Assembly (NCBI GenBank): GCA_963732935.1
Contig: CAVTBK010000001.1
Coordinates: 497,624 to 561,623, forward strand
Reading direction: 5' to 3'
DNA: 64,000 nt
Origin: an uncultured Acidobacteriota bacterium
GTDB lineage: Bacteria; Acidobacteriota; Vicinamibacteria; Fen-336
Position numbers and translations under genes: made by a program. Of this stretch, positions 13,148 to 50,292 are shown piece after piece; position 1 is the first letter of the stretch; each line of letters begins with the position of its first letter. The notes below the pieces were generated by a model. The model was not told where the DNA came from. It ran no database searches and was given only the letters and a program-made list of their open reading frames with translations.

Positions 13148-13214
13148 GGGCTTCCAGCGATCATGCCAGCGTTCGACCGCCGCGTCATCCGGCTGTGCTA
13201 GTCTCTGGTACGAA

Positions 13215-16176: not shown

Positions 16177-16284
16177 CGCCTTGAAGGTTAATCGAGCCGC
16201 AGGCCGGGGCGAAAATCGAGGCGGGCACGCGCCGCATCCCGCCCTCGACAGGTTTGTCTGCCCTGCTGCAAGGGGCGACATTTC

Positions 16285-16293
16285 TGTCATACT
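16285..16293 (+). promoter_or_regulatory. Extended -10 box TGtCATACT 7 nt upstream of ATG 16301 (leaderless-type geometry)
   Basis: TGn plus CATACT immediately upstream of the start codon; no SD sequence. Confidence 0.3.
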
Positions 16294-16300
16294 CGGCGCG

Positions 16301-17830
<1,530 letters not shown>

Positions 17831-19754: not shown

Positions 19755-19830
19755 CGCTCGTCGTTTCGCCCGGCCGGCCCGGCCGCGTCGGTAGAATGGT
19801 GTGTCCCGCCGGATAGGAGCGGAGGCCGCC

Positions 19831-21828: not shown

Positions 21829-23163
21829 CTAGAGCAGGTCGGCGACGGTCCGCGCGCCCGCGGCTTCCCGCGCCTTGCCGTGCAGCGCCGCCACCACGGC
21901 CCAGGCCGGCCCCTCTCGGGCCGGCTCGCCGAGCGTGTGACGGGAGGCGAGCGCCACCACGCGTGCCAGGGGCACCCTTTCTGCCGGCAGCGCGAGCATG
22001 AGGCCGACGTCCTCGGAGCGGGGATGCGTCACCTCCACCACCAGGCCCTCGTCCTCGAGGCAACGGACCAACTCGGCGACCGCCTCGAGCCGGAGCGTCA
22101 GCTCCTCGGCGAGGGCCTGCCGGCTGGCGGGCCGGCCCTCGCGCGAAGCGCGCGCGATCGCCGCCAGGACCGGCAGCAGCCACTGCGGGTCGCTGGCCGC
22201 GAAGGCCCCTCGGGTGTCGGGTGTCTCGAACAGCCGGCCCCGCATCGCCTGAAGCGTGAAGGCGACCTCGAGCCCGAAGAGCACGATCAGCCAGTTGAGG
22301 TAGAGCCAGAACAGGAAGAGCGGGATGAGGCCGATCGCCCCGTAGAGCTTGAGGTAGGGCAGGGCGCGGCTGACGTAGAGGCCGAACCCCCACTTCGAGG
22401 CGTCCCAGAGGGCCGCGGCGATGATCGCGCCGGACAGCGCCGGCCGCCAGCGCACGAGGGTGTTGGGCAGGAGCTTGTAGAGCAGCGCCAGCGCCAGGAA
22501 GCTGCCGCCGAGCGAGCCGAACTCGCCCAGGAGCGCGGAGAGGGGCCCGACCACCGGTAGTGCCTCGGCCCGCCCCAGCCAGAACTCGGCGGCGTAGAGG
22601 ACGCTCAGCAGCAGCAGGGGCCCGAGCGTCAGCACCGACCAATAGACCCCGATCCGCGTCAGCCAGCCGCGGCCGCGGGGCGCGCGGTAGATGCGGTTCG
22701 CGGCGTTCTCGAAGGAGACCAGCAGGCTGAGCGCGGCCCAGATCAGGAGCAGGGCCCCGAGCGCGCCGATCGTCTCGAAGCTCAGCCCGCTGACGCTGCG
22801 CACGACCTGGAGGATGCGCTCGTCGAGCATGGCCTTGAACGCGGCCGCCTCCGGCCGGGCCGCGTCCACCTGGTAGTTGAAGAAGCCGTAGGTCGCCCGC
22901 TGCAGCTGGCGCGCGGCGGCGTCCATGTCGCCGAAGAGCCGGAACGCCAGCATCGAGACCATCAGCAGGGGCACCAGGCCGAAGATGGTCCGGTAGGTGA
23001 GGGCGGCGGCCATCTCCCCGGCATCGTCCGAACGCAGCTCGCCGCTGCAGTGGCGCACGAGATCGACCGTATAGCGGAGGCCTCGCTGCGCGCGGTTGAG
23101 CTCGGCGACGGGCCGGCTCACCAGCCACCGCAGGTAGTCCTCGACCTTGGTGATCGGGTCCAT
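21829..23163 (-). CDS. YihY/BrkB (virulence factor BrkB / RNase-BN-like) family membrane protein
   Basis: AALTYRTIFGLVPLL and WxxxxxFGLxVAF motifs. 6 TMs plus C-terminal soluble extension. Confidence 0.75.
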   Translation of the reverse strand: MDPITKVEDYLRWLVSRPVAELNRAQRGLRYTVDLVRHCSGELRSDDAGEMAAALTYRTIFGLVPLLMVSMLAFRLFGDMDAAARQLQRATYGFFNYQVDAARPEAAAFKAMLDERILQVVRSVSGLSFETIGALGALLLIWAALSLLVSFENAANRIYRAPRGRGWLTRIGVYWSVLTLGPLLLLSVLYAAEFWLGRAEALPVVGPLSALLGEFGSLGGSFLALALLYKLLPNTLVRWRPALSGAIIAAALWDASKWGFGLYVSRALPYLKLYGAIGLIPLFLFWLYLNWLIVLFGLEVAFTLQAMRGRLFETPDTRGAFAASDPQWLLPVLAAIARASREGRPASRQALAEELTLRLEAVAELVRCLEDEGLVVEVTHPRSEDVGLMLALPAERVPLARVVALASRHTLGEPAREGPAWAVVAALHGKAREAAGARTVADLL

Positions 23164-23230
23164 GGCGCGATTATCTCCCACTGCCTTCCGGGTCGGCCCC
23201 GGCGCCGATGCTAGAATCGCTCCTCGCCCC

Positions 23231-26200
23231 GTGACCTCGCGTCCTCTGGTCCTGCTCGTCCCTTCCCTGGCAGCGGCGCTCGAGCTGCCGCGGCGGCTCG
23301 CCTCGACCGGGGCGGCCCTGGCGGACCTGTACGCGTGGAAACCGCTCGACCTGGCCCGCGAGGTCGCCGAGCCGGTGCTGCTCGGGCGCGGGCTCCAACC
23401 CTGGACCGGCGGACACGATGCGCTCCTCGCCACCCGGCTGCTGGGTGAGGACGGCGAGCGGGGCCTCGTCCTTCCCCAGGGCGCGCCGCGGGCGCCGGTG
23501 GCGGCGGCGCTGGCTCGTACCCTCGCGGCCCTGCGCCGCAGCCGGGTCGCGCCCGAGGCCGTGGCCGCGCTCGCCGAGCGGGCGGACGACGTCGAGGACG
23601 TCCGGCGCCTCCGCGCGCTCGCCCGTCTCCAGCGCCGCTTCGAGGAAGCCCTCGAGGGCAGGACGGCCGATCCGGTCACGATCCTGGACGCCGCGCGCGC
23701 CGAGCTCGCGCGGGCGCCCCTCCTGGCCGACGCCGAGATCCTGCTGGTCGACGACCTCGAGCTCGAGCCGGGGGAGCTCGCGCTCGTAACCGCGCTCGCC
23801 GAGCGTGGATCCCTGCGTGTCGTCCGCCGGCCGCTGCCGCCCTCACTGCGTCCCGGCTCGCTCCGCGCAGCCCTCGCCGCGCACGGGGTGGCGGAGGTGG
23901 ACTGGTCACTGACCCCGCTCGCCCCGGTGGCGCCTGCCGAGCCGCCCGCGTCGCTCCTCCGGCTGCGCGAGCGGCTCTTCGAGCCCCCGAGCGGCGAGGC
24001 CCTGGAGGACGGCGCGGTCGAGCTGGTGACGGCCGCCGGCGAGGCAGGCGAGGCCCGCGCGGTGGTCCGGCGCCTCCTGCGTGCGGCGGCCGCCGGCGTG
24101 CCCTTCGAGGAGATGGGCGTCGTGCTGCCGCGGCCCGAGGCCTATGCGCCGCTCTTCACGGACCTGCTGACGCGGCTCGGCATCCCGCATCGGCTCCACC
24201 CCTCCTTGCCCCTGCGCTTCGGGCGCGCGGCGCGCTCGCTCCTCCTGCTCTTCCGCTGCCGCGGCCTCGAGCGACCCGCGGTCATGGAGCTCCTGACCTT
24301 CGCGCCGGTCCCCTTCGAGGCGCTGCTCGGCACCGAGGTCGAGGCGTGGCCTTCCCGCTGGGACGCGCTCAGCCGGGAGGTCGGCATCGTCTCCGGATTG
24401 AGCCGCTGGATCGTCGGGCTGCGGGCCGCGGCCGAGGCCGAGCGCGAGGCCGCCGCGGGCGAGCCTGAGGGCGAGCGGCGGAGCCATCGGCTGCGCCAGG
24501 CGGCCGACGCCGAGGCGCTGCTGCACGTGGTCGAGATCCTCGGGGCGACGCTCGAGTCGCTCGCCGGGGAGGCGTCCTGGCCCGAGTGGGTGGAGCGCCT
24601 GCGCACGGTGTGCGACCAGTGGATCGGGGCCGAGCGCGACCGCGACGCGCTGCTCGAGCTGATCGCGGACCTGGGCGCGCTCGGCTCCGTGTCTTCGCGC
24701 GCGGCCTGGGGGGAGGTCGAGCAGGTCCTCGAGGCGCGCCTCGAATGGGAGCGCCTGCCCGCCGATCCCCCGGCGAGCGGTGCCGTGCACGTCGGGGCCC
24801 TCGACGCGATGGCCGGCCTCAGCTTCCGCGTGCTCGCGATCCCCGGTCTGGTCGAGGGCGGCTACCCGGGCGTGTTCCGCCAGGACCCGTTCCTGCTCGA
24901 TGCGGAGCGGATCGCCCTCGCCGCGATGCCGCCGAGCGGCGGAGGGCGGGCGGCGGAGACGGGCGGGCCCCGCGCGCAACGCGTCCCGCGACCGGCGCGA
25001 GGGCGCCACGCGCGAGGACGCGACCAGGCCGGAGGCGCGCAGCTCGAGCTGTTCGGAGGGGCCACGCCGGACGCAAGCGGGCCGGCGCCGGAGGCGGCGG
25101 CGAGAGAGAGGATGCCTCAGGCCTCGACGCCGATCGCGACGCCGCTTCCCACCAGCCAGGATCGTCTCCAGGAAGCCAGGCGGCTCTTTCATCGGGCGGT
25201 CTCGCAGGCGGGCGAGCGTCTCGTCCTCTCCTATCCGCGCGCGGACGGACGCAGCGGGCGCGAGCGTTTGCCGTCGCTCTTCTTCGCCGCCGCAGCCGCG
25301 ACCCTGGCCGGGCGGCCGCTCGCGGGACCCGAGCTCGCGGGGCTCGTGAGCGAGGATGACCCCGCGGCGCTGGCGCTCGAGGACGCGCTCGACGCGGGCG
25401 AGCGGGACCGCCTCCGCCTGCTGCGCGACCCGTCCGCGGCCACGGCGATTGCGGCGGGCTCGGCGTGCTTCCGCCACTCGCGCCTCGCCAGCCAGGCCCG
25501 CTGGTCGGGCCGGCTCACCCGCTACGACGGGATGGTGGGCGACGCCGACGGGACGTTGGCCGAGCGCTTCGATCCCCTGGCGGCCCCGCACCCCGCCTCC
25601 GCCAGCCGGCTCGCGACCTACGCCCGCTGCGGCTTCCAGTACCTGCTCGCGCACGTGATGCACCTCGAGCTCTCGCCCGAGCCGGAGGAACGCAGGCGGA
25701 TCGAGCCGCTCGAGCGGGGCGACCTCTTCCACCGCGTGGCGGAGCGCTTCCTGCGGGAGTGCCGCGACCGGGGCGAGCTGCCGCTCGTCGACGGCGAGCC
25801 GGTCCGCGCGCGCCTGCGCGTGCTGGCCGAGGAGGCGCTCGAGGGGCTGGTCGCGTCGAGCCCGCCGCGCTTCACCCTCCTCTGGCAGCGCGAGAAGCGG
25901 CGCTTCCACGAGACCATGCAGGACTGGCTGGGCCGGGAGGCGGCCGCTCGCGGCCGCTCGACGCCCGTCCACTTCGAGCTCAGCTTCGGCCTCGGCCTGC
26001 GGCCGGGCCCGGAGGAGCCGCACGACCCCGACCCGCTCGAGATCGATCTGGGCGACGGCCGTACGCTGCGCGTCTGCGGGCGGATCGACCGCATCGACCG
26101 CCGCGCGGAGGGCGGCCTCGTGCTGCGTGACTACAAGACAGGGCGGGCCCCGCGCGACGACGGCGGGATCTTCCGCGGCGGGCGGCAGCTCCAGATCCCC

Positions 26201-26509
26201 TTCTACGTGCTGGCGGCAGGCCGGCTGCTGCCGGGCGAGCCGGTGGTCGACGCCTTCCTCGACTACGTCGACGGGGGCCGCCAGGTCGCTTTTCGTCCCG
26301 ATCTCGTGTCGAGCGAGTCGTTCCGCGGTCTGCTGCGGAGCCTGGTCTCGCTGATCGCGCGGGGCGCGTTCGTCCAGGAGCCGACCGCCTGCGACTGGTG
26401 CGACTTCACCTCGGTCTGCGGGCCCAAGGCGCTTCTCGCGCGACGTCAGGGGATGAAGGTGGGGGACGCCGTGTTGCAGGAATACCTGCGCCTGCGGGAC
26501 GTGGGATGA
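23231..26509 (+). CDS. addB: AddB-like double-strand-break repair nuclease (PD-(D/E)XK with C-terminal Cys cluster); start uncertain (GTG 23231 chosen)
   Basis: C-terminal LVLRDYKTGRAP and FxxPxxTACDWCDFTSVCG (Fe-S type nuclease domain). Extended -10 TGcTAGAAT at 23209..23217. Confidence 0.65.
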   Translation: MTSRPLVLLVPSLAAALELPRRLASTGAALADLYAWKPLDLAREVAEPVLLGRGLQPWTGGHDALLATRLLGEDGERGLVLPQGAPRAPVAAALARTLAALRRSRVAPEAVAALAERADDVEDVRRLRALARLQRRFEEALEGRTADPVTILDAARAELARAPLLADAEILLVDDLELEPGELALVTALAERGSLRVVRRPLPPSLRPGSLRAALAAHGVAEVDWSLTPLAPVAPAEPPASLLRLRERLFEPPSGEALEDGAVELVTAAGEAGEARAVVRRLLRAAAAGVPFEEMGVVLPRPEAYAPLFTDLLTRLGIPHRLHPSLPLRFGRAARSLLLLFRCRGLERPAVMELLTFAPVPFEALLGTEVEAWPSRWDALSREVGIVSGLSRWIVGLRAAAEAEREAAAGEPEGERRSHRLRQAADAEALLHVVEILGATLESLAGEASWPEWVERLRTVCDQWIGAERDRDALLELIADLGALGSVSSRAAWGEVEQVLEARLEWERLPADPPASGAVHVGALDAMAGLSFRVLAIPGLVEGGYPGVFRQDPFLLDAERIALAAMPPSGGGRAAETGGPRAQRVPRPARGRHARGRDQAGGAQLELFGGATPDASGPAPEAAARERMPQASTPIATPLPTSQDRLQEARRLFHRAVSQAGERLVLSYPRADGRSGRERLPSLFFAAAAATLAGRPLAGPELAGLVSEDDPAALALEDALDAGERDRLRLLRDPSAATAIAAGSACFRHSRLASQARWSGRLTRYDGMVGDADGTLAERFDPLAAPHPASASRLATYARCGFQYLLAHVMHLELSPEPEERRRIEPLERGDLFHRVAERFLRECRDRGELPLVDGEPVRARLRVLAEEALEGLVASSPPRFTLLWQREKRRFHETMQDWLGREAAARGRSTPVHFELSFGLGLRPGPEEPHDPDPLEIDLGDGRTLRVCGRIDRIDRRAEGGLVLRDYKTGRAPRDDGGIFRGGRQLQIPFYVLAAGRLLPGEPVVDAFLDYVDGGRQVAFRPDLVSSESFRGLLRSLVSLIARGAFVQEPTACDWCDFTSVCGPKALLARRQGMKVGDAVLQEYLRLRDVG

Positions 26510-29500
26510 GCGGCTTTCGCCCCGTCGACGAGGAGGCGCGCGCCCGCACGCGCGGCGACCACGCGTCCAGCCTCGTGCTCGAGGCCGGCGCCGGAACCGG
26601 CAAGACGACCCTGCTGGTGGACCGGATCGAGGCGATGCTGCGCGCGGGCGCGGCCCGCCTGGAGGAGATCGCGGCCGTCACCTTCACCGAGAACGCGGCC
26701 ACCACCATGAAGCTCCGCCTGCGCGAGCGCCTGGAGCGGGCGCGGGCGGACGAACGCCTGCCCGCGAGCGAGCGGGAGCGTGTGGCCGCCGCGCTCGAGG
26801 TCCTCGAGCGGGCCAGCATCTCGACCATCCACGCCCTGTGCGCCCAGATCCTGCAGGAGCGCCCGCTCGAGTGCGGCGTCCTGCCGGGCTTTCGCGTGGC
26901 CGACGAGACGGAGGCGGACCGCCTGTTCACGGCGGCCTGGGAAGAGTGGCTGGGCGAGCACCTGGCCGGGGGCGACGAGGTCCTGCTGGATGCCCTCGAC
27001 CGTGGCATCCCGCTCGAGGGCGAGGGCCCCTGGGGCGAGCGGGGCTCGCTGCGCGGCCTCGCCCGCACGCTCCTCGAGCAGCGCGACCTCCAGCCGCTGG
27101 CCGCCGACGGCGCCTTCGTGCCCGAGGCCGCGCGTGAGGAGCTGCTGGCGCGGGCCGCGCGGACCCGAGAGCTGGTCGCCTCGGTGAGCGAGGGCGACAG
27201 CCTGGCCGGTCGCCTTCTCCGTCTCGCGGAGCTCGCCGAGGAGTCGCGCGGCCTTTCCGGGAAGGACCTCGAGCGGCGGCTGCTGGCCCTCGAGCCGATT
27301 CCAGCCAACTTCGGCTTCAAGCCTCACTGGCCGTCGCCGGAGGCGCTGGCGGAGGGCCGGGCGATCGCGGGCTGGTCGAAGGAGGCCCGCGCCCGCTGGA
27401 CGGCGGCGGTCGGGTCGGACCTGCACGGCCGCCTGGTCCGCGCGCTCGGCGGGGTGGCGGCTCTTTACGAGCGGCGCAAGGCCGAGCGAGGCGTCCTCGA
27501 CTTCCTCGACCTGCTGCTGCGGGCGAGGGACGCCCTCCGCGATCGCGCGGGCGTCCGCGCCTGGTTCGCGCGGCGTTTCCTGCACCTGGTGATCGACGAG
27601 TTCCAGGACACCGACCCGCTGCAGGTCGAGATCGCGCGGCTCCTCACCCGGGGCCGCCCCGGGGGGCTGGTGGTGGTCGGCGACGCCAAGCAGTCGATCT
27701 ATCGCTTCCGGCGCGCGGAGGTGCGGCTCTTCCGCGAGCTGGCCCGGGCCGCGGAGCCGGCCTCGGCGGGGCCGGCCATCCTGCACCTGGTGCAGAACTT
27801 CCGCTCGCGGCCGGCCATCCTGCGCTTCGTCAACCGCGTCTTCGCCGAGCTCATCCAGTCCTCGGAGGAGGCGGATCAGCCGGGCTACGAGGCGATCGCG
27901 CCGCCGCCGGGGCTCCCCGACGAGCCGGCGGTCGTGGCCCTTCGTTTCCCGGCCCCGCCCAACGCGAGCGGGGAGGACCTGCTCAAGGCCGAGGCTGGGG
28001 CCCTCGCGGCCTTTCTGGCCGACATCGGCCGCGGGCGCGAGCCGGTCCGCGATCCCGTCTCGGGCACGGTGCGCCCGAGCCGGGCCGGCGACGTGCTGGT
28101 GCTCGCCCGCCGGCTGACGCAGGTGGCCGCGCTCGAGGAGGCGCTCGAGGCGGCGGGGCTGCGCTTCAGCGTCGAGGGCGGGAAGTCGTTCTTCGACCGG
28201 CAGGAGGTCCACGAGGCGCTCGCGGTGCTGCGGGCGATCGACGATCCTTTCGACCGCATCGCGCTCGTCGCGGCGCTTCGTTCGTCCTTCTTCGGCGTGA
28301 GCGACCGCGACGTCGTGGCCTATGCGCTCGCCGGGCCGCGTCTTTGGGGCCCGATCGACGAGGATCGGCCCGGCGCCGAGGCGCTCGCCCCTGCCTTCGC
28401 CCTGCTCGGGGAGCTGCACCGGCTGCGCCGGCACGCGAGCGTCCCCTTCCTGCTCGAGCGGCTCTACGAGCAGACGCGCGTGCTGGCCGCGCTCACCGGG
28501 TCGCGGCGCGGCGAGGCGCAGATCGCGAACCTGGAGAAGGTCGCGGCGCTCGCGCGGGAGGCCTCGGCGCTCGGCGCCCTGACCCTGCGCGGCTTCACGC
28601 GTCTGCTCGAGGACCGGATCGCGAACGCGCGCGAGGAGCCGGACCTGCCCTCGACGCGGCCGGGAGACCCCGACACCCTGCGGATCCTCTCGATTCACAG
28701 GGCCAAGGGGCTCGAGGCCCCGGTCGTGGCCCTCTACGACACCGCCGACAGCGGCCGCAGCGCGGTCGACACCGTGGCGCTCTGGGACGAGGGGCGCATC
28801 GCGGTGGGCTTCCGGGGCGGCTGCCAGCCTCCGGGCTGGGACGCGCTCGTGCGCCAGGAGGAGAAGAAGGCGCGCGCCGAGTCGCGGCGCCTGCTCTACG
28901 TGGCCTGCACCCGCGCCCGCGACCTCCTCGTGATCCCCCGCCCGCCCGCGGACGCGGCCCTGGGCGACTTCTGGAAGGAGCTCGTGGAGCGGCTCCCGGC
29001 GAAGAGCGACGCCGAGGTGCGCGTCGTCGACGCCGAGACCGTGGCGACCCCCGAGCCGGCCGGCCGCGGGCGCGAGCTGTGGGCGCTCGCTTCGGCCGAA
29101 GGTGGCGACGCCGTCGCCGCCCGCTGGCACGAGGAAAGGCGCCTCCTGCTCGAGCGGGCCGGCGAGCGCCTGCTGCCGATTTCCGCGACCCGGCTGGCGG
29201 CACGCACTGCGCCTCCCCCGGTCGTCGCCGAGGGGGTGAAAGGCGGGCGAGACTTCGGCAGCCTCGTGCACCGGCTGCTGGAGTTGCTTCCCTTCGACGT
29301 CGCGGAGCCGCGCGCCCGGGCGATGGCTGAAGCGCTCGCCCCCTGGTTCGGTCTCGACGCGGCGGCGGCCGAGCGCGCGGCCGTCCAGGTGGAGCAGATC
29401 CTGCGCTCGTCCCTGCTCGAGCGCGCGCGGCGGGCCTCTCGCGTCTGGCGCGAGCTGCCTCTGTGGTTCCCGGACGGCGGGCGTCTGGTCGAGGGCGTCG

Positions 29501-29706
29501 TCGATCTCGTGTTCGAGGAAGACGGGCAGCTGGTGGTCGTCGACTACAAGACCGACGCGATCAGCGAGGAGCAGGCGCTGGCGCAGGCCGCGCACCACGC
29601 GCCGCAGCTCCAGCTCTACGGCCGGGGCCTGGCGCAGGCCCTGGCACGACCGGTGCGCGAGCGCCTGGTCGTCTTCACCACGAACGGCCGCAGCGTGCCG
29701 GTGTAG
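26506..29706 (+). CDS. addA: AddA-like UvrD/Rep-family helicase-nuclease
   Basis: ATGA overlap with addB. Helicase motifs: Walker A AGAGTGKT, HLVIDEFQDTDPLQ, RILSIHRAKGLEAPVV. C-terminal nuclease VVDYKTD. Confidence 0.8.
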   Translation: MSGFRPVDEEARARTRGDHASSLVLEAGAGTGKTTLLVDRIEAMLRAGAARLEEIAAVTFTENAATTMKLRLRERLERARADERLPASERERVAAALEVLERASISTIHALCAQILQERPLECGVLPGFRVADETEADRLFTAAWEEWLGEHLAGGDEVLLDALDRGIPLEGEGPWGERGSLRGLARTLLEQRDLQPLAADGAFVPEAAREELLARAARTRELVASVSEGDSLAGRLLRLAELAEESRGLSGKDLERRLLALEPIPANFGFKPHWPSPEALAEGRAIAGWSKEARARWTAAVGSDLHGRLVRALGGVAALYERRKAERGVLDFLDLLLRARDALRDRAGVRAWFARRFLHLVIDEFQDTDPLQVEIARLLTRGRPGGLVVVGDAKQSIYRFRRAEVRLFRELARAAEPASAGPAILHLVQNFRSRPAILRFVNRVFAELIQSSEEADQPGYEAIAPPPGLPDEPAVVALRFPAPPNASGEDLLKAEAGALAAFLADIGRGREPVRDPVSGTVRPSRAGDVLVLARRLTQVAALEEALEAAGLRFSVEGGKSFFDRQEVHEALAVLRAIDDPFDRIALVAALRSSFFGVSDRDVVAYALAGPRLWGPIDEDRPGAEALAPAFALLGELHRLRRHASVPFLLERLYEQTRVLAALTGSRRGEAQIANLEKVAALAREASALGALTLRGFTRLLEDRIANAREEPDLPSTRPGDPDTLRILSIHRAKGLEAPVVALYDTADSGRSAVDTVALWDEGRIAVGFRGGCQPPGWDALVRQEEKKARAESRRLLYVACTRARDLLVIPRPPADAALGDFWKELVERLPAKSDAEVRVVDAETVATPEPAGRGRELWALASAEGGDAVAARWHEERRLLLERAGERLLPISATRLAARTAPPPVVAEGVKGGRDFGSLVHRLLELLPFDVAEPRARAMAEALAPWFGLDAAAAERAAVQVEQILRSSLLERARRASRVWRELPLWFPDGGRLVEGVVDLVFEEDGQLVVVDYKTDAISEEQALAQAAHHAPQLQLYGRGLAQALARPVRERLVVFTTNGRSVPV

Positions 29707-29730
29707 CGGTCCTGGGGCGCTCCGCGCGCG

Positions 29731-29739
29731 TGCTAGAGT
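29731..29739 (+). promoter_or_regulatory. Extended -10 box TGcTAGAGT exactly 10 nt upstream of ATG 29750 (leaderless-type)
   Basis: TGn plus TAGAGT; no SD between box and start. Confidence 0.35.
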
Positions 29740-29749
29740 CGCTCTGCAG

Positions 29750-30682
29750 ATGGCGTCTCCCCTCCCCGCTCCGGATCGCCCGGCCTTCTCGTGGTCGGCC
29801 TCGCGCCACGACACCTTCGCGACCTGCCGCCGGCGCTACTTCTACTCGTACTACGCCTCCTTCGAGGACGAGGAGGTACGGCGTCTCAAGAAGCTGTCGG
29901 CGCTGCCCCTCTGGGCCGGCAGCGTCGTCCACGACGCGATCGAGCGCTTCCTGCGCGAGAACGACGCCGTTCCCGATCCCGAGGCGCAGGAGGCGCTCGT
30001 CCGCCAGGTGGTCCACGGCACGATGGTGTCCGACTGGCGCGAGAGCGAGGCCGGCGGGCGCTTTCGCCTCTTCGAGCACGAGTACCAGGTGCCGGTCGAG
30101 CAGGAGGACAAGCGGATCGCGGTGAACGTGGTGATGCGCTCGCTGCGCAGCTTCTTCCGGGGAGAGACGCTCGCGCACGCGATGGAGCTCGGCCGCGGGA
30201 GCCGGCTCGCGCTCGAGGACCTCGCTTCCTTCCCGGTCGGCGACACGGAGGTGCTGGTCCGCATGGACCTCGCCTACCGCGAGCCAGACGGCCGGGTGGT
30301 GATCGTGGACTGGAAGACGGGCCGGGGCGAGGGCCGCTTCAACGAGGTGCAGATCGCCGGCTATGCGCTCTGCGCTGTCGAGAAGGGCTGGGTCGACGAT
30401 CCCGAGCAGATCACGACCCAGCTCGACTACCTGGCCCTGCCCAAGAGCGTGCGTCGCTCCGTGACCCCGCAGAAGATCGAGGCCGCCCGGCGTTTCATAG
30501 AGCGCAGCGCCCGCGACATGAAGGCCCTGCTCGTCGATCCGATCGCGAACCTCGGCCGGATCGAGGACTTCCCGATGATCGACCGGCCTCAGGTCTGCCG
30601 TCGCTGCAACTTCCGGCGGCTCTGCTTCCCGCGCGCCGAGGAGACCCGGCTCTCCGGCGCGGCGCCGACGCCCTCCCGCTGA
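29750..30682 (+). CDS. PD-(D/E)XK nuclease, Cas4/RecB-family-exonuclease-like, with 4-Cys cluster
   Basis: N-terminal C..RRYFYSYY, core D..E.K-type (VIVDWKTG), C-terminal CRRCNFRRLC. Confidence 0.65.
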   Translation: MASPLPAPDRPAFSWSASRHDTFATCRRRYFYSYYASFEDEEVRRLKKLSALPLWAGSVVHDAIERFLRENDAVPDPEAQEALVRQVVHGTMVSDWRESEAGGRFRLFEHEYQVPVEQEDKRIAVNVVMRSLRSFFRGETLAHAMELGRGSRLALEDLASFPVGDTEVLVRMDLAYREPDGRVVIVDWKTGRGEGRFNEVQIAGYALCAVEKGWVDDPEQITTQLDYLALPKSVRRSVTPQKIEAARRFIERSARDMKALLVDPIANLGRIEDFPMIDRPQVCRRCNFRRLCFPRAEETRLSGAAPTPSR

Positions 30683-30691
30683 GCGCCGGCA

Positions 30692-30721
30692 CCGGCCGGA
30701 CCGAATCCTTCGGGCGGCCGG
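30692..30721. terminator. Possible bidirectional terminator hairpin between convergent genes (no U-tract)
   Basis: CCGGCCG ga CCGAAtccTTCGG g CGGCCGG nested palindrome. Confidence 0.3.
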
Positions 30722-30722
30722 G

Positions 30723-31469
30723 CTACTCCTTCAGGTACCGGGCCAGGAAGGCCGTCGTCCGCGCCCAGGCGTCCTTCGCCGCCTCGGGGCGATAGCCGCC
30801 CCAAGGGTTGTGGGCGTTGGCGAAGGCATGGCCGGCGCCTGGGTAGATCTTGACGTCGATCGTCTTGCCGTCCTTCTTCATGGCCGCCTCGAAGGCCCGC
30901 ACCAGGTCCGGGCCCACGCCCTTGTCGTCGGCGCCGTAGTTGCCGAGGACGGGTGCCTTGATCGCGGCGACCGCGGCCGGGTCCGTGGGAGGAGTGCCGT
31001 AGTAGGCGACCACCGCCCGGAGCGCCGGCTCTTTGGTCGCGAAACGGAGCGCGTAGCCGCCCCCCATGCACCAGCCGATCACGCCGATCCGGTCCTTCTT
31101 CACGTCCGCGCGGGCCTCGAGGGTCGCGAAAGCGCCGTGCAGGTCGCGCAGGGCGCGGTCCTCCGGCATGCCCATCATGAACTGGTGCGCCTCCTCCTGC
31201 TTCGCGGTCACCTTGCCGTGATAGAGGTCGGGGGCGAGCGCGACGTAGCCCTCCTGGGCGAGCGCCCGAGCCTGGTCCTTGATCCAGTCGTCGAGCCCCC
31301 ACCACTCCTGGATCACCACCAGGCCGGGAAAGGGCCCCGTCCCATCCGGCGTCACCAGGAAGCCGGACGCCGTGTCGTCACCGCTCTTGAAGGTCACCGT
31401 CTGCTCGGCGGCGGCCGCGAGCGACGCCGTCGCCCACACGGCCAGCGCCAACGTCAACACCTTCCTCAT
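30723..31469 (-). CDS. Dienelactone hydrolase family protein, secreted
   Basis: Signal peptide. GWCMGG nucleophile elbow, GAGHAF. Confidence 0.85.
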   Translation of the reverse strand: MRKVLTLALAVWATASLAAAAEQTVTFKSGDDTASGFLVTPDGTGPFPGLVVIQEWWGLDDWIKDQARALAQEGYVALAPDLYHGKVTAKQEEAHQFMMGMPEDRALRDLHGAFATLEARADVKKDRIGVIGWCMGGGYALRFATKEPALRAVVAYYGTPPTDPAAVAAIKAPVLGNYGADDKGVGPDLVRAFEAAMKKDGKTIDVKIYPGAGHAFANAHNPWGGYRPEAAKDAWARTTAFLARYLKE

Positions 31470-31586
31470 TCACTCACCTCTGTCGGCGGGAAGCGACGAG
31501 AGAGCCGCTCCCCGCGAGCGTTGTCATCACGCCCCCTTCACGGATTGCCGTCTTTGCGATCGCCTGTCCCCGAGCAGACCTGCCCG

Positions 31587-33254
31587 CTAGCGAACCGGCT
31601 CCGGCAGGGCCGACCGAGGCAGCGCATGCTTCTCGAGCTCGAGGCGGCGCCGCAGCAGGGCCGCGGCGATCACGAGCACCTCGAAGGCGACGAAGCCTCC
31701 CACGTACCAGTAGCCGCCCGATCCGAAGCCGTAGGAGTGGAGCCCGGTGCCGAGCACGAAGTTGACGCCGTACCAGGCCATCAGCACGAGCAGATAGCCG
31801 AGCAGCGAGCCGACCGCCATGCCGAAGTCCTTGATCCAGCCCACGAAGCGCGCGTGCAGGACCGCGAGATAGCCGAGGGTCGCGATCAGGGCCCAGGTCT
31901 CCTTGGGGTCCCAGCCCCAGAAGCGTCCCCACGAGTACGAGGCCCACACGCCACCCAGCATGGTGCCGACCGCCAGGAAGAGCGTTCCCAGCTGGAGCGC
32001 GCGGTACAGGAAGAGCGAGAGCGACTTGAGCAGCCCCGCTCTGCGCGGGGCGAAGAAGTAGAGGCCGAGGTTGAGGTGGCCCAGGGCCATCGCCAGGGTG
32101 AAGGCGGCGTAGCCGAGCATGATGGTGAGGACGTGGATGGTGAGCCACATGTTGTCACGCAGCACCGGGACCAGCGGCGAGATCGAGCCGTCGAAGATCG
32201 GCACGCTGTCCGCGATCAGGAGCGCGATGGTCGCGACCGCAGAGGCACAGACGGCGAAGAAGCGGGCCCGGTAGATCGCCTCGAAGATCAGGGCGAAGAG
32301 CATGCCGCCCCAGGAGACGAAGACGATCGTCTCGTACATGTTGGTCACCGGCGGCCGCCCGGCGATCAGGATGCGCAGCAGCATCCCGTACGAGACGAGG
32401 GCGAACCCCGACACGATCGCGACGAAGCCCGCCGCCGTGACGGCGCGCGAGGCGAGCGGGAAGCTGGAGAGGAGCAGGAGCAGGCCGGCGAGGTAGAGGA
32501 TCCAGGCGATCCGGTACGGCTGGAGCGAGTTGTAGTGCAGCTCGAGAGCGAGCTGCCGCTGGCTCGGGTAGACGCCGGGCGCGGACTCCGCCAGGCGCCG
32601 GCCCAAGGCGGCGCCGGCCGCCTGGACGCCCGCACGGTCGCCCTCGCGATAGGCCGTCACCAGCGCCGCGACCAGCATCTCCAGCCGCTGCGCCTGGGGC
32701 ACCCTGCCGGAGCTGAGGTCGGCGAGCGAGGACCAGGTCCCCCTGGGATCACCGGGCGTCGGCACGAGGTGGAGGGCCGAGCCCGAGATGACCCCGCTCA
32801 CGGTCCGAAGCGTGTCGTAAAGGTTCGCCACCTCGCGGTCCACCGGACCCAGCGGCTGGTCTTTCTGGCTCTTCGCCCGCGCCGCGGCGAGGGCCTTGTC
32901 GAGGCCCGGACTGGCCAGCAGCTCGTTGAGGCTGAAGCGGTCCCGACCCGACGGCAGCCCGATCGCTCGGCGCAGATCGGCGTGCGTCACCTTGATGATG
33001 GGGCGGTCCCGCCACTCGTCCGGACGCGACAGCACCGCGAGCAGCCACTCCGCCGGCTCCAGGCCGTCCACGCGCTCGAGGCCGAAGGGCCGCGCGCCCT
33101 GCACGCGCTTCACCAGGTCCCGCGCGAAGGTGTCGAGCGGCTTGGTGCGCCCGCCGTCCTGGATGGCGAGGGCCTTGAAGGGCCCGATCTCAGGCCCCGC
33201 CAGGAGCGGGCTCGCCGTGCCGGCCAGCAGACAGATCAGAAGGGTTCGCTTCAT
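31587..33254 (-). CDS. ccsA: Cytochrome c-type biogenesis protein CcsA/ResC (system II) with large N-terminal periplasmic domain
   Basis: WGGMLFAL and WGRFWGWDPKETW tryptophan-rich heme-handling motif. Confidence 0.85.
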   Translation of the reverse strand: MKRTLLICLLAGTASPLLAGPEIGPFKALAIQDGGRTKPLDTFARDLVKRVQGARPFGLERVDGLEPAEWLLAVLSRPDEWRDRPIIKVTHADLRRAIGLPSGRDRFSLNELLASPGLDKALAAARAKSQKDQPLGPVDREVANLYDTLRTVSGVISGSALHLVPTPGDPRGTWSSLADLSSGRVPQAQRLEMLVAALVTAYREGDRAGVQAAGAALGRRLAESAPGVYPSQRQLALELHYNSLQPYRIAWILYLAGLLLLLSSFPLASRAVTAAGFVAIVSGFALVSYGMLLRILIAGRPPVTNMYETIVFVSWGGMLFALIFEAIYRARFFAVCASAVATIALLIADSVPIFDGSISPLVPVLRDNMWLTIHVLTIMLGYAAFTLAMALGHLNLGLYFFAPRRAGLLKSLSLFLYRALQLGTLFLAVGTMLGGVWASYSWGRFWGWDPKETWALIATLGYLAVLHARFVGWIKDFGMAVGSLLGYLLVLMAWYGVNFVLGTGLHSYGFGSGGYWYVGGFVAFEVLVIAAALLRRRLELEKHALPRSALPEPVR

Positions 33255-34695
33255 ACACGCTCTCCCGCGCCCGGCGGGCCGCCAGGGCCTGGGCCGCCTG
33301 GCGCCGCGCCAGGTACGGCTTGACGTAGAACATCCACACCACACCCGCGGCGACCAGAAAGACGCCCAGGTAGACGAGCGGGAGACCCGGCGCGCGAGCG
33401 ACCGAGAAGATCGACATCATCGGGCTTCCCTCGACGAAGGAGGACTGGAAGAAGATGTACCCGCGGTAGTGGAGCGGGTGGTTCATCGAGATCAGGGTCT
33501 CGAAGCTGCCCCGCTCGGGGTCCTCGATGCGTACCGTGCTCTCGTAGGTCGCCGCCATCTGCGAGCCGGGGTACGGCTCGTCGTTGAAGTGGAGGAGCGT
33601 CACTCGGAAGGGCAGCGCCCGCAGGGGTGCCTGGTAGCCGACCATGACGTACCGCGAGCCGAGGCGCACCCCGCGCCGCTCGCCCCAGAGCACCCACTCG
33701 GGGTCGCTGCGCGCGGCACCGCTCTCGAGATGGACGCGCACGGCGGGCCGTCGCTGCTCCTCCTTGGCCGGCGGGGTCTCGGGCGCGACCGTGCGGACGA
33801 GCGCGGCCGACGGGATCAGGTGGTCGACGGTCACCCCCAAGCCCGGCCAGCCCGTGGGGATCGGCTGCCCCGCCTCGACGACCCCGGTACGCAGGACACC
33901 CCGGCCGTCGGCGGCGGCGAAGCGGATCTCGTCCCCGGGGCCGATCACCAGCGAGAGATGATTGGGCCCCTCGCCGCGCTCGAGCAGCCGGCGCGCCCCG
34001 TCCTCGTCGGCCGCGGAGCGGAAGTCGAACGCGACCATGCCGAGGTCGAGGCGGCTCCGCTGCGGGTCGTCGGGAACCAGCCAGGAGTCCTGGGTCGCCA
34101 TGGGCGCCTGCACCAGGAGATGCAGGGCCGGCGAGCCAACCGGGGCCGGTCGGTAGCTCTCCCGCACCGAGACGTGCGGCTGGTAGGCGTCGGCCACCAG
34201 AACCAGGTCGGAGCCGGGGACCCGGTAGCGCTGCTCGTGCCCGGGACGCGGGGCGTGCTGCTCGAATACGACCGGAAAGCTGCCGCGCGCTCCGTTCGGC
34301 GCCGTCACCTGGAGGGCCTTCTCCAGCAGCATCACGCGGTTGGAGGTCTCGCCTTCGTAGAGGGGCATGTTGGAGTCGAGCCCACCGAAGAGCGAGAGCA
34401 CCGATCCGAGCAGGATGGTGAGGATCCCCACGTGGGCTGTCAGGAAGCCGATGTGGTGCTTGGTCCAGGGGTAGCGGCTCACCATCACCGCGACCACGTT
34501 CGTCCCCAGCAGCGCCAGCAGGAAGGTGAACCAGGGCGTGTGGTAGATGTTCCGCTGGACGGCGGGCGTGCCGTTGCGTGCCTCGTAGAAGGTGGCGAAG
34601 GCGCAGACCGAGCCGAGCGTCACCATCGTCACGACCGCGAGGCGGAGCGAGGACAGAAAGGCCAGGGCTTGGCCTGCGACACTTTTGTGCTGCAT
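33190..34695 (-). CDS. resB: Cytochrome c biogenesis protein ResB/Ccs1 (system II)
   Basis: ResB-like TM pattern, large periplasmic domain, C-terminal TM. 65-nt overlap with ccsA start. Confidence 0.8.
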   Translation of the reverse strand: MQHKSVAGQALAFLSSLRLAVVTMVTLGSVCAFATFYEARNGTPAVQRNIYHTPWFTFLLALLGTNVVAVMVSRYPWTKHHIGFLTAHVGILTILLGSVLSLFGGLDSNMPLYEGETSNRVMLLEKALQVTAPNGARGSFPVVFEQHAPRPGHEQRYRVPGSDLVLVADAYQPHVSVRESYRPAPVGSPALHLLVQAPMATQDSWLVPDDPQRSRLDLGMVAFDFRSAADEDGARRLLERGEGPNHLSLVIGPGDEIRFAAADGRGVLRTGVVEAGQPIPTGWPGLGVTVDHLIPSAALVRTVAPETPPAKEEQRRPAVRVHLESGAARSDPEWVLWGERRGVRLGSRYVMVGYQAPLRALPFRVTLLHFNDEPYPGSQMAATYESTVRIEDPERGSFETLISMNHPLHYRGYIFFQSSFVEGSPMMSIFSVARAPGLPLVYLGVFLVAAGVVWMFYVKPYLARRQAAQALAARRARESVYEANPSDLSAGRHGEPAPGGA

Positions 34696-34757
34696 CTCTC
34701 TAGGGCTGTTCGAACCATTCTAGGGGGGTGCTCGCGAGGGTGTCAACGAGCTCAGCA

Positions 34758-34787
34758 TTGACGTGCCCGGCCGAGCATCTCTAGAAT
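34758..34787 (+). promoter_or_regulatory. Putative sigma-70 promoter TTGACG-N18-TAGAAT upstream of FHA gene
   Basis: Near-consensus hexamers; GAGGAGAG RBS follows. Confidence 0.4.
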
Positions 34788-34833
34788 CGCCGAGACTTCC
34801 GCCTGCACGCGCGAAGTGCGAGGAGAGCACCCC

Positions 34834-35844
34834 ATGCCCAGCCTGCGGCTCGTGCCCGTCTCCGGTCCCCCGATCGAGGTCGCGAAGGAGCAGAACGTGG
34901 TCGGGCGGGATCCGGGTTGCGACATCGTCGTGACCGACGGCTCGGTGTCGCGCCGCCATGCGCGTCTGGAGCTGCGCGGCTCCGAGTGGTGGGTGATCGA
35001 CCAGGGCAGCGCGAACGGCACCTACCTCAACAGCGTCCGGGTCGCGGAGCAGGCGCTCAAGAGCGGTCAGGAGCTGCGCTTCGGCGCGCTCGCCTTCCAG
35101 GTGGACATCGCCGAGGACCCGGAAGCGACCGTGGCGACGCCCGTCCTCGACGAGAACGCCGAGGTGACCGTCCTCTCGGCGGCGCCGCCGCCGCCTGTCA
35201 CTCCCCCGCCGGCCGCGGCTCCGCCGGCCGCCCCGCCCCCGGCCGCGAGGGTGCCCGCGGTGCCGGCTCCGCCATCGCCCGCTCCGCCGCGTGCTGCGGC
35301 GCCCCCGCCCGCCCCCCGACCTCCGGCGGCCCCCGTCAGCCCGCGCGCAGCCGCGCCGCCCATGCCGCCGCGCCCCACCTCGCGCAGGCCGAGCGCGCCG
35401 GTGCCGCAGATGCCGGCCGGCGCCGCAGCGGCCAAGAAAGGCCGCTCGCCGATCGTGTGGGTGGCGGTCGGCTGCTGCGGCTGCCTGCTGCTGGTCGCCG
35501 CCCTGATCGCGGTGATCGGCGGCGGCGCCTACGTCGCCTCCAAGGGGGCGGCGGACGCCGCCCATGCCTGGATCGCCGAGGTGCGGCAGGGAGGAGGCTC
35601 GGCCGGGGCGCCGTACCTCAGCAGCGGCTACTCGAGCCAGGTCTCGCAGGAAACGAACGCCGCGATCATCGCGGCGATCCAGCAGTCGACCGACGCCACT
35701 TTCCTGCAGCGCTCGATCGAGAACGATCGGGCGGTCCTGCGTGGAGTGCTGACCGGGGGCGGCTCGACCCAGCCGCTCACCGTCCACCTCGTCAAGGAGG
35801 ACGGCGTCTGGAAGGTCGACTCTGTCGCTCTCGGGCCCGAGTGA
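34834..35844 (+). CDS. FHA-domain protein with Pro/Ala-rich linker, single TM and C-terminal extracytoplasmic domain
   Basis: FHA core (VVGRD..CDIVV..SVSRRHARLEL..VIDQGSANGTYLN). Linker PPPPVTPPPAAAPPAAPPPAA. TM IVWVAVGCCGCLLLVAALIAVIGG. Confidence 0.75.
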   Translation: MPSLRLVPVSGPPIEVAKEQNVVGRDPGCDIVVTDGSVSRRHARLELRGSEWWVIDQGSANGTYLNSVRVAEQALKSGQELRFGALAFQVDIAEDPEATVATPVLDENAEVTVLSAAPPPPVTPPPAAAPPAAPPPAARVPAVPAPPSPAPPRAAAPPPAPRPPAAPVSPRAAAPPMPPRPTSRRPSAPVPQMPAGAAAAKKGRSPIVWVAVGCCGCLLLVAALIAVIGGGAYVASKGAADAAHAWIAEVRQGGGSAGAPYLSSGYSSQVSQETNAAIIAAIQQSTDATFLQRSIENDRAVLRGVLTGGGSTQPLTVHLVKEDGVWKVDSVALGPE

Positions 35845-35860
35845 GAGCGTCGGTGTCCGG

Positions 35861-36181
35861 GTGAGCGATCCCGCAGCCGAGCCGACCGAGATCCGTCACA
35901 AGCGCGCCGACCGGCGTGTTCTGGTGACCTGGAGCGACGGACACGAGTCCGTCTTCCCGCTCGACTACCTGCGCAGCTGGTGCCCGTGCGCCCTGTGCCA
36001 GGGGCACTCCGCCGAGTCGCGCTACCTGGACCTCCACGACCAGGAGCTCGTCCACCTGGAGGCCGTCGGCAACTACGCGGTTTCGTTCACCTGGCAGGAC
36101 GGCCACAACACCGGCATCTACCCCTATCGGCTGCTGCGGGCGCTCTGCCCCTGCCCGGTCTGCGACGGACCGAAGGGCTAG
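35861..36181 (+). CDS. DUF971 family protein (gamma-butyrobetaine-hydroxylase-like N-terminal Zn domain)
   Basis: CPCALCQGH...IYPYRLLRALCPCPVC. Confidence 0.7.
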   Translation: MSDPAAEPTEIRHKRADRRVLVTWSDGHESVFPLDYLRSWCPCALCQGHSAESRYLDLHDQELVHLEAVGNYAVSFTWQDGHNTGIYPYRLLRALCPCPVCDGPKG

Positions 36182-38637: not shown

Positions 38638-38821
38638 GACCGCCGTCGCCCCCGTCCGCTCGTAACGTCACCCGCGGGGAGACACGAGCCCGTCTCCCTT
38701 GACAACGTCCGAATCACCGGTGGATGATGCCGAGTTCGGAGTTGCGTCCCGTCTCAGACGATCGAGGCGCTCATGCCTCCCGGCACTCCGGAGAGTCTAC
38801 TCAACCAATCGGCTGGATTCA

Positions 38822-39604
38822 ATGGACCCCGTGAGCCTCAAGGAGCTGCTCGAAGCCGTCAAGGCCGGCCGCGTCTCGCCGGAGCAGGCAGTCGAGCGGC
38901 TGGCGACCCTGCCCTACGAGGACTTGGGGTTCGCCAAGGTCGACCACCATCGGGCCCTCCGCCGCGGCTTTCCCGAGACGGTGTACGGCGAGGGCAAGAC
39001 GGCCGAACAGATCGAAGCGATCGTCGGGCGGATCGCGGCACGGGGCCAGCGCGCCCTCGTCACACGGACGACCGCCGAGATCGCGCAGCGTCTTGCCGCG
39101 TCGCGTCCAGACGTCCGCTTCCACGAGGCGGCCCGTTGCCTGACCGTCGATGCGGGGCAAAGGCCCGAGCTCCCCGGCTCGATCGCCATCGTCGCGGCGG
39201 GGACCTCCGATCTGCCGGTCGCCGAGGAGGCGGCCGTCGTCGCGGAGTTCCACGGCGCGCGAATCGAGCGCATCTACGACGTGGGCGTCGCGGGCCTCCA
39301 CCGGCTGTTGGACCGGACCGATTCGATCCGGCGCGCTGACGTGGTGATCGTGGTGGCCGGAATGGAGGGCGCGCTGCCCTCCGTCGTCGCCGGCCTGGTC
39401 GACGCACCGGTCGTCGCGGTCCCGACCAGTGTCGGCTACGGGGCTTCTTTCCATGGACTTGCCGCCCTGCTCGCGATGCTGAGCTCGTGCGCCTCCGGCG
39501 TGGGTGTCGTCAATATCGACAACGGGTTCGGCGCCGCCCACCTCGCCTGCCTGATCCTCAGGGGGCGATCGGGCGCTGGCGGACGTCCGACCCTCAAGGA
39601 CTGA
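38822..39604 (+). CDS. larB: LarB-like / PurE-like protein (nickel-pincer cofactor pyridinium-3,5-biscarboxylic acid mononucleotide synthase homolog)
   Basis: N-terminal helical domain plus PurE-like fold (AIVAAGTSDLPVAEEA, VVAGMEGALPSVVAGL). Confidence 0.7.
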   Translation: MDPVSLKELLEAVKAGRVSPEQAVERLATLPYEDLGFAKVDHHRALRRGFPETVYGEGKTAEQIEAIVGRIAARGQRALVTRTTAEIAQRLAASRPDVRFHEAARCLTVDAGQRPELPGSIAIVAAGTSDLPVAEEAAVVAEFHGARIERIYDVGVAGLHRLLDRTDSIRRADVVIVVAGMEGALPSVVAGLVDAPVVAVPTSVGYGASFHGLAALLAMLSSCASGVGVVNIDNGFGAAHLACLILRGRSGAGGRPTLKD

Positions 39605-44053: not shown

Positions 44054-45721
<1,668 letters not shown>

Positions 45722-45825
45722 CATCGGCCCGAGATCGCGTCGGCCCGCGCTGGCGGCACGGGCGGCGACATCCTCTGCGTCACGGCTCCGCCAAGGACCG
45801 CCGCGGTTCTGCTACGCTTCCCGGC

Positions 45826-45899
45826 GGGCCTGTAGTTCAGATGGTTAGAACGGCCGGCTCATAACCGGCTAGTCGAAGGTTCGAGTCCTTCCAGGCCCA
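45826..45899 (+). tRNA. tRNA-Met (anticodon CAT), elongator-type (G1-C72 paired; could alternatively be tRNA-Ile2 if lysidinylated)
   Basis: GGGCCTG acceptor; D-arm GTTC/GAAC; anticodon stem GCCGG/CCGGC with loop CTCATAA; T-arm GAAGG TTCGAGT CCTTC; discriminator A; CCA not encoded. Confidence 0.8.
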
Positions 45900-50241: not shown

Positions 50242-50276
50242 CCTCGCATGGTAGCAAGCGCGCCCGTGAGACACGG

Positions 50277-50282
50277 TAGACT
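50277..50282 (+). promoter_or_regulatory. -10 box TAGACT 10 nt upstream of ATG 50293 (leaderless-type)
   Basis: Same geometry as 29734 and 13199. Confidence 0.3.
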
Positions 50283-50292
50283 GTTCGGCAGG

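Follow-up and report, generated by a model that had tools for sequence, protein, structure and literature searches.

Bacterial genes that are transcribed without a leader have an accepted signature, a TANNNT box that precedes the start codon by about 10 bp (PMC3160421). In a survey of 953 bacterial genomes, each of the three Acidobacteria included had between 9.7 and 19.4% of its genes predicted as leaderless (Zheng et al., 2011; PMC3160421). The "group C" genomes of GeneMarkS-2 show the same arrangement, with a Pribnow box 6-8 nt from starts in Mycobacterium tuberculosis (PMC6028130). In mycobacterial transcripts, a 5′-terminal ATG or GTG is required for translation and also suffices for it (PMC4633059), and a differential RNA sequencing (dRNA-seq) study of Deinococcus deserti gives 60% of mRNAs as leaderless (PMC4007540). 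Here we describe boxes of this kind in 64,000 nucleotides of DNA (hereafter "the window") from an uncultured member of the Acidobacteriota, class Vicinamibacteria (GenBank assembly GCA_963732935.1, contig CAVTBK010000001.1, positions 497,624 to 561,623). In the window, -10-like boxes end 6-13 nt before the start codons of ten genes that lack a Shine-Dalgarno (SD) sequence. It is highly probable, judging from the sequence and its conservation, that these boxes are -10 elements of the housekeeping sigma-70 type, giving mRNAs that have no leader, or one of 2-7 nt, and no SD.

Boxes next to start codons in the window

The window has a G+C content of ~72%, and homologues of its nuclease assign it to the Acidobacteriota, class Vicinamibacteria. 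We mapped its ~50 genes from third-codon-position G+C in all six frames and enumerated the candidate starts of each gene (222 in all) together with their upstream sequence. Family labels were taken from Pfam, with a cut-off of E < 0.01 for matches, and an SD was defined as GGAG, GAGG or AGGA (also AAGG in the start listing, 3-12 nt upstream).

An earlier note on this DNA had named five genes with a box at a short, fixed distance from the start codon and no SD. Re-reading the sequence base by base, we found all five pairs of box and start, and none of the five gaps contains GGAG, GAGG or AGGA. The PD-(D/E)XK nuclease gene (29750-30682, + strand; Pfam PDDEXK_1, E = 1.5e-23) has a single candidate start in its open reading frame (ORF), ATG 29750, which follows 10 nt after the extended -10 box TGCTAGAGT (29731-29739, +). 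The same 10-nt gap separates the extended -10 box TGCTAGTCT (13196-13204, +) from ATG 13215 of an SGNH/GDSL lipase with a signal-peptide-like N-terminus, and GGTAGACT (50275-50282, +; hexamer TAGACT without TG) from ATG 50293 of an acpS-like gene. The box TGTCATACT (16285-16293, +) ends 7 nt before ATG 16301 of a GAF-domain sigma-54 activator, and the extended -10 box TGCTAGAAT (23209-23217, +) ends 13 nt before GTG 23231 of an addB-like gene.

Some particulars of that list needed revision. The consensus had been given as TGnTAGAnT; the recurrent form is TGnTAnnnT, and the three middle bases vary freely in orthologues. The box of the activator gene is located as described; its hexamer reads CATACT and so lacks the first T. 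Four of the five gene labels are supported by Pfam (PD-(D/E)XK nuclease, GDSL/SGNH lipase, GAF-domain sigma-54 activator and AddB-like). The label "acpS" was not retained as such: the gene at 50293 has no match at the cut-off, and its translation resembles AcpS by eye only.

Five more genes, all on the minus strand, bring the number with a -10-like hexamer 6-13 nt 5′ of the start and no SD to ten. The gene divergent from the lipase has TGGCATGAT (13160-13168, -) 12 nt from ATG 13147, which leaves room for a short leader without an SD. A HEAT-repeat/GDSL gene, divergent from the activator, has TAACCT (16185-16190, -) 8 nt from ATG 16176, and its 639 aa product matches the database protein P0001 in full. 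A gene for a BrkB-family membrane protein, divergent from addB, has GATAAT (23170-23175, -) 6 nt from ATG 23163. The extended -10 box TGCTACCAT (50248-50256, -), which we add to the earlier list, is 6 nt from GTG 50241 of a pgeF/YfiH-type gene (Pfam Cu-oxidase_4). Lastly, the extended -10 box TGCTATAGT (56207-56215, -) is 8 nt from TTG 56198 of a radical SAM gene. Eight of the ten genes form four divergent pairs (13147/13215, 16176/16301, 23163/23231 and 50241/50293), with start codons 51-124 nt apart. Nine of the ten start with ATG or GTG, the exception being TTG 56198. The first T is missing from three of the hexamers (CATACT, CATGAT and GATAAT), and the TG extension is absent at 50275, 16185 and 23170. 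By reading, most of the other genes in the window (~25 or more) have GGAGG, GGAG or GAGG 4-12 nt 5′ of a plausible start (examples of the GGAGG type are starts 1026, 5925, 8952, 19383, 19831, 21098 and 34834). The close-box arrangement covers about 10 first-in-unit protein genes out of ~50, plus one tRNA gene.

The boxes stand out by their placement. Their number does not exceed chance: TGNTANNNT occurs 7 times on both strands (128 kb) versus 7.1 expected by shuffling, and TAGANT occurs 9 times versus 12.6, so that it is under-represented if anything. An excess of motif counts was thus rejected as a line of evidence. All seven TGNTANNNT sites read TGCTA and lie outside coding sequence. Five of them end 6-13 nt 5′ of a start codon, and a sixth precedes a tRNA-Met gene by 7 nt; the remaining site, at 48348, drives a gene with a leader. 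In all, six of the seven sites fall within 5-13 nt of a gene 5′ end, a zone that takes in 1.46% of positions given the 222 starts (binomial P = 6.6e-11). The placement of the boxes is non-random.

Conservation across Vicinamibacteria

The proximity of box and start is kept across the class Vicinamibacteria for all five genes of the earlier list. The nuclease family is the most extensively sampled. A genome scan found ~45 orthologous Vicinamibacteria loci with 52-84% protein identity, and we scored 41 of them (window included), from different species, selected on a TAnnnT followed within 6-13 nt by an ATG or GTG in frame. The gap is 6 nt in 11 loci, 7 nt in 14, 8 nt in 11, 9 nt in 1, 10 nt in 2, 11 nt in 1 and 13 nt in 1, so that 36 of the 41 have 6-8 nt. 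One base 5′ of the hexamer there is a TG (93% T, 93% G), which was not a selection criterion. The three middle positions of the hexamer vary and the flanks are near background. Between 4 and 28 codons precede a conserved FSWS motif, and where the N-terminus changes length the box shifts along with the start. The window gene starts 43 nt 3′ of addA, and the box is also kept in loci with other upstream neighbours. The start codons of the 41 loci comprise 21 ATG, 20 GTG and 0 TTG, which fits the mycobacterial 5′-end rule (PMC4633059).

The neighbourhoods of the lipase and activator genes were compared with loci L161-L163 and L165 (and L164), retrieved via the HEAT/GDSL protein. L161-L163 share the activator box TGTCATACT without change, at gaps of 6-7 nt, and the more distant L165 has CAGAAT followed by 6 nt; the arrangement is therefore kept in 5/5 sequences (window plus four loci). 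The lipase box TGCTAGTCT is unchanged in 4/4 sequences (window, L161, L162 and L163), where it ends 9-11 nt before the start. For the HEAT gene, the box is kept in 5/6 sequences, as TACCCT or TAGGAT at 7-9 nt in L161, L162, L163 and L165; the L164 gene is leadered. For the gene at 13147, TG[G/T/C]CATGAT is kept in L161-L163, with gaps of ~14-17 nt by eye.

The remaining families agree. In addB, a TAnnAT lies ~8-14 nt (mostly 10-13 nt) 5′ of the aligned start, which is GTG in most loci (14 loci by automatic count, more by eye). All 11 orthologous loci of the BrkB-like gene have [G/C]ATAAT, 6-7 nt and then ATG or GTG. In a metagenome scan, 11 of the 12 orthologous pgeF-type loci have a TAnnAT that ends 5-9 nt (mostly 6 nt) before the start, and the exception, L088, has an SD-like GGGAG instead of the close box. 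The acpS-like gene has TA[G/C]ACT in nine loci; eight of these have a gap of 6-7 nt, and the window has one of 10 nt.

We also counted pairs without regard to gene family in 834 kb of Vicinamibacteria DNA. There, 159 TANNNT boxes lie 5-13 nt 5′ of an ATG or GTG at the head of a coding-like ORF, versus 79-83 in controls of equal width, and 15 protein families keep such a pair in at least three loci, versus 2-6 in the controls. The enrichment of TANNNT near starts that the earlier note had anticipated is thus found in the class-wide DNA and is not found in the window alone (see below).

Identity of the boxes as promoter elements

The earlier note had read the boxes as -10 elements, and several lines of evidence bear this out, among them the pairing of the hexamer with a -35 element and the presence of a box 5′ of a tRNA gene. 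At the FHA gene, TTGACG, an 18 bp spacer and TAGAAT occupy 34758-34787 (+), as that note had also proposed, and ATG 34834 follows with the SD GAGGAG. The divergent gene has TTGACA, 18 bp and TAGAAT at 34717-34746 (-), with its start at ATG 34695. In a consensus scan of 22000-36000, these were the two TTGAC[AG]/TAGAAT sites found, with 0.1 expected. The pairing recurs in orthologues, at ~17-18 bp by eye. In the window, its spacing of 18 bp from TTGACA or TTGACG marks TAGAAT as an ordinary sigma-70 -10 element. The invariant positions of the boxes coincide with the extended -10 consensus of sigma-70. In the same scan of 22000-36000, no -35 was recognisable at the TG boxes, and -35 hexamers were present only at the two TAGAAT promoters that lack TG.

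The likely reader of these boxes is encoded in the window itself. The rpoD gene (44054-45721, +) has Pfam Sigma70 regions 1.1, 1.2, 2, 3 and 4, and its product carries the sequence IPVHMIET in region 3.0, which we take to be the segment that contacts TG in Escherichia coli (H455/E458). This housekeeping sigma factor would be the one predicted to recognise the boxes.

A box abutting a tRNA gene

A tRNA-Met (CAT) gene (45826-45899) is located downstream of dnaG-rpoD, and 7 nt separate its mature 5′ end from an extended -10 box, TGCTACGCT (45810-45818, +). The gene is carried by four loci (window, L081, L089 and L095), and in every one of them TG[C/G]TAnnCT lies 5-7 nt 5′ of the mature tRNA-Met. 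As a tRNA gene has no start codon, the close box cannot be a translation signal here. With the box at this distance, transcription is predicted to start at or next to +1 of the mature tRNA, giving a possible leaderless tRNA. A promoter that abuts the mature tRNA-Met 5′ end is the most novel residue of the case.

Predicted transcripts and their translation

Work in E. coli indicates that bacterial RNA polymerase usually initiates at the seventh to ninth base past the -10 hexamer. With gaps of 6-8 nt, this initiation site coincides with the first base of the start codon, A or G. We propose that the boxes act as -10 elements of ordinary sigma-70-type promoters, mostly of the extended -10 form (TGnTAnnnT), which would require no -35. 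From a promoter so near the start codon, transcription would begin on the start codon or 2-7 nt upstream of it. The resulting mRNAs would have no room for an SD and, for that reason, would have to be translated by a leaderless or 5′-end-dependent route. In the four divergent pairs, back-to-back promoters within control regions of 51-124 nt would serve both genes.

From this spacing we infer the 5′ ends of the transcripts, and with them the route of translation. In most orthologues of the nuclease, pgeF, BrkB-like, acpS-like and activator genes, the start codon would be positioned at the initiation site. Among the window genes, those at 16301, 16176, 23163 and 50241 are predicted to be truly leaderless. 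The 10-nt gaps (29750, 13215 and 50293) would give leaders of 2-4 nt, and the gaps of 12-13 nt (13147 and 23231) leaders of ~5-7 nt. The leaders of 0-5 nt predicted in the earlier note fit this range, in that gaps of 6-9 nt allow leaderless mRNAs and gaps of 10-13 nt imply about 2-7 nt.

The start at 56198 is a special case. The radical SAM gene appears to begin at this TTG, which directly follows an in-frame TAG; in the L081 orthologue the aligned codon is ATG, and a TAGAAT lies 15 nt upstream of it. Measured against the mycobacterial ATG/GTG rule (PMC4633059), a near-leaderless mRNA that starts with TTG would be out of the ordinary.

Alternative explanations

Several points weigh against the reading of the boxes as promoters of leaderless or near-leaderless mRNAs. 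In the window alone, plain TANNNT boxes show no enrichment at 5-13 nt from the candidate starts, with 7 pairs versus 3, 8, 5 and 3 in control bins of equal width, so the window statistic draws on the TG-extended form and its placement. The gaps of 10 nt at three of the five genes first listed, and of 13 nt at addB, exceed 6-9 nt, and genes with gaps of 10-13 nt are for this reason probably short-leader genes and not strictly leaderless. One member, 56198, starts with TTG, a codon that does not support leaderless initiation in mycobacteria. Some start choices in the window were partly guided by the motif, although alignment of orthologues independently supports most of them. Finally, our search of the Acidobacteria literature returned computational predictions only, and no transcription-start mapping for any acidobacterium.

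The long gaps lead to the main rival, which concerns how ribosomes load on the mRNAs of the nuclease, SGNH, acpS-like, addB and 13147 genes. These mRNAs could have real leaders of 2-10 nt and use an SD-independent route through the 30S subunit, not the route that begins at a 5′-terminal start codon. We consider this possible, if somewhat doubtful, and retain it for the genes with 10-13 nt gaps. The gaps of the addB family, over many loci, cluster well beyond 6-8 nt, and those of the 13147 family range over 12-17 nt. Each window gene with a 10-13 nt gap has a purine at the seventh to ninth base past the hexamer, 5′ of the start codon, and in mycobacteria the transcript has to begin exactly with an ATG or GTG (PMC4633059). 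However, orthologues of the nuclease, acpS-like and SGNH genes mostly have gaps of 6-9 or 9-11 nt, which makes the 10 nt of the window the upper tail of a leaderless-type distribution. Moreover, in D. deserti, transcripts that start very near the start codon are classed with the leaderless ones (PMC4007540).

Mis-assigned start codons would restore normal leaders if the true starts were down- or upstream. High-GC ORFs offer many GTG candidates, and the automatic calls for the SGNH gene in L161 and L163 do differ from ours, with the called ATG inside the box. Even so, this is very unlikely, because the nuclease ORF lists ATG 29750 as its sole candidate start, and FSWS begins four codons past the proposed start in most nuclease orthologues, leaving no space for a downstream one. 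The N-terminal tblastn alignments of the addB, BrkB-like, pgeF, activator and radical SAM products begin at residue 1-6, and the HEAT protein has the same length as its database entry. Near the five genes, no alternative start was flagged with GGAG, GAGG, AGGA or AAGG except GTG 13398, which lies 183 nt downstream in the SGNH gene and has AGGA/GGAG 9-10 nt upstream. Another proposal is that the box is not a promoter but a regulator binding site, or a signal at the level of RNA or translation that is coupled to the start codon. Extra conserved elements do occur near some boxes (a GGWCC element ~20 bp 5′ of the nuclease box and GACA-N4-TGTC dyads at the activator; see below), yet the positions that do not vary match the sigma-70 extended -10 consensus exactly, TTGAC[AG] accompanies the same hexamer at 18 bp, and the box serves very different genes and precedes a tRNA gene as well, all of which makes this proposal extremely improbable. 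Least credible of all is that AT-containing hexamers occur by chance in AT-richer intergenic DNA beside starts. The counts of TGNTANNNT and TAGANT at or below shuffle expectation, and the lack of TANNNT enrichment in the window, are what chance would give. It is nevertheless rejected by the placement statistic, by the invariance of T, A, T and TG amid diverged flanks in the 41 nuclease loci, and by the class-wide excess of pairs (159 versus ~80) and of conserved families (15 versus 2-6).

Other elements near the boxes

Sixteen nt 5′ of the nuclease TG is a conserved cGG(T/A)CC(T/C)G element, represented in the window by CGGTCCTG (29707-29714). Relative to the hexamer it occupies -27 to -20, with CC at 93% and 88% in the 41 loci. 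In L042 it lies within an inverted repeat, GGTCCTGC...GCAGGACC, a feature of some loci only. We rejected this element as the -35 of the nuclease box, as the spacer of ~21 bp is too long. The 8-mer CGGTCCTG is also common, with 13 copies in the window, mostly within genes, and cannot be counted as a general promoter element or as a specific word. Too distant for a normal -35, the GGWCC element may be an operator.

The sigma-54 activator gene sits upstream of amtB and a P-II gene, and two dyads of the form GACA-N4-TGTC lie 30 nt apart on the plus strand before its start, GACAGGTTTGTC (16247-16258) and GACATTTCTGTC (16277-16288). The second overlaps the activator -10 box. Both are kept in L161-L163 and are recognisable in L165, and they may represent an autoregulatory operator.

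The start codons of the pgeF and acpS-like genes (50239-50295), which are divergent, are 51 nt apart. Their -10 boxes face apart with 18 nt between them, and each falls within the upstream promoter region of the other on the opposite strand. Elsewhere, the ATG of the addA-like gene overlaps the addB stop codon (ATGA, 26506-26509) and has no SD, which suggests translational coupling of addB and addA.

Boxes with leaders

The same boxes also occur at genes with leaders. For the gene of a major facilitator superfamily (MFS) protein, the earlier note had described a TAGAAT box with a normal leader and SD, and this is what we found: the box is at 19792-19797 (+), and GGAGG lies 5 nt upstream of ATG 19831. 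It had described the box at 48351 in the same terms, and here we disagree. This copy of TGCTAGAAT (48348-48356, +) belongs to a CT398-like zinc-ribbon gene and ends 34 nt before ATG 48391, where no GGAG, GAGG, AGGA or AAGG was flagged 3-12 nt upstream. ATG 48355 and ATG 48229 were rejected as starts of this gene: in the longer ORF, similarity to orthologues begins at residue 54-55, which makes ATG 48391 the start and the box a promoter with a leader. The box is conserved in the orthologues, with gaps from 10 to about 38 nt.

For some genes the type of leader differs by species. We noted this for the FHA gene (34782-34836 in the window; L004, L009, L013, L015 and L019), pgeF (L088) and the CT398-like gene (L095). 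The alternatives are a long leader with an SD versus a gap of 9-14 nt without one, and the TAGAAT box is retained throughout.

Upstream of the gene that starts at ATG 38822 (38794-38822, +) we found a conserved block, AGTCTAYCGGAG, ~20-28 nt from the start and also present in orthologues. It may contain a -10 of the TAGTCT type, with a leader of ~17-25 nt and a GGAG too distant for a normal SD. A "tRNA-???" with a four-base anticodon, reported by ARAGORN at 17663-17752 (-), was rejected. Because it lies within the coding sequence of the activator gene and has no Rfam match, it is probably a false positive.

Consequences for annotation and regulation

The automatic SGNH calls in L161 (~9012, -) and L163 (~3662, -) place the start 7 codons too far upstream, at an ATG that belongs to the promoter box (A-TGCTAGTCT). 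These starts are likely mis-annotated owing to the leaderless arrangement, as gene finders that expect a ribosome binding site can misplace starts in such genomes. A gene without a leader cannot be controlled through the structure of a 5′ untranslated region or through SD accessibility, so control must act at the promoter. The conserved dyads beside two of the boxes fit control at that level. That one gene can be leadered with an SD in one species and leaderless in a related one agrees with earlier proposals of easy interconversion between these modes.

A stronger set of claims would be that Vicinamibacteria are a leaderless-rich group outside the Actinobacteria and Deinococcus-Thermus, that the joining of promoter and gene reaches stable RNA in them, with a tRNA-Met whose primary and mature 5′ ends coincide and whose 5′ processing needs no RNase P, and that the TTG-initiated, near-leaderless mRNA of 56198 is translated, relaxing the ATG/GTG rule. 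We judge it unlikely that all of this holds together.

Comparison with known systems

Leaderless transcription as proposed here finds its closest counterpart in the leaderless, TA-led genes of Mycobacterium, Streptomyces, Corynebacterium and Deinococcus, and in group C genomes. In both, TANNNT lies 6-12 nt 5′ of the first gene of a unit. As in other high-GC bacteria, the middle bases are uninformative, there is no SD and the starts are ATG or GTG, and SD-led genes coexist with these in one genome (PMC3160421, PMC6028130, PMC4633059 and PMC4007540). Unlike those systems, the present lineage belongs to the Acidobacteriota, class Vicinamibacteria, and is known here from sequence alone. Many of its sites are TG-extended (always TGC in the window) and several have gaps of 10-13 nt. 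On the evidence of the sequence, the boxes and starts appear to agree with the leaderless or TA-led class in every respect that sequence can address.

The class Vicinamibacteria was described later than the 953-genome survey which, to our knowledge, could not include its genomes. The window estimate of ~20% (about 10 of 50 genes) fits the 9.7-19.4% predicted for Acidobacteria, falling within or near that range. Those predictions concern the same phylum and the same signature (Zheng et al., 2011). Unlike the present case, they came with no gene-level or comparative evidence, which is here traced gene by gene over tens of species.

The extended -10 promoters of E. coli and Gram-positive bacteria share with these boxes a TG one base 5′ of the hexamer and the retained segment of sigma region 3.0. 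They differ in that the promoter is here fused to the start codon, and the base after TG is C in 7/7 window sites. The leaderless tRNAs of Nanoarchaeum equitans resemble the tRNA-Met case, as transcription is predicted to start on the first base of the mature tRNA or no more than 1-2 nt from it; the present case differs in being bacterial and in that only one such tRNA was seen.

What is new is the lineage and the gene-by-gene conservation, the mechanism being already known in Actinobacteria and Deinococcus. The understanding of translation initiation is unchanged, and a known pattern is extended to a soil lineage rich in uncultured members.

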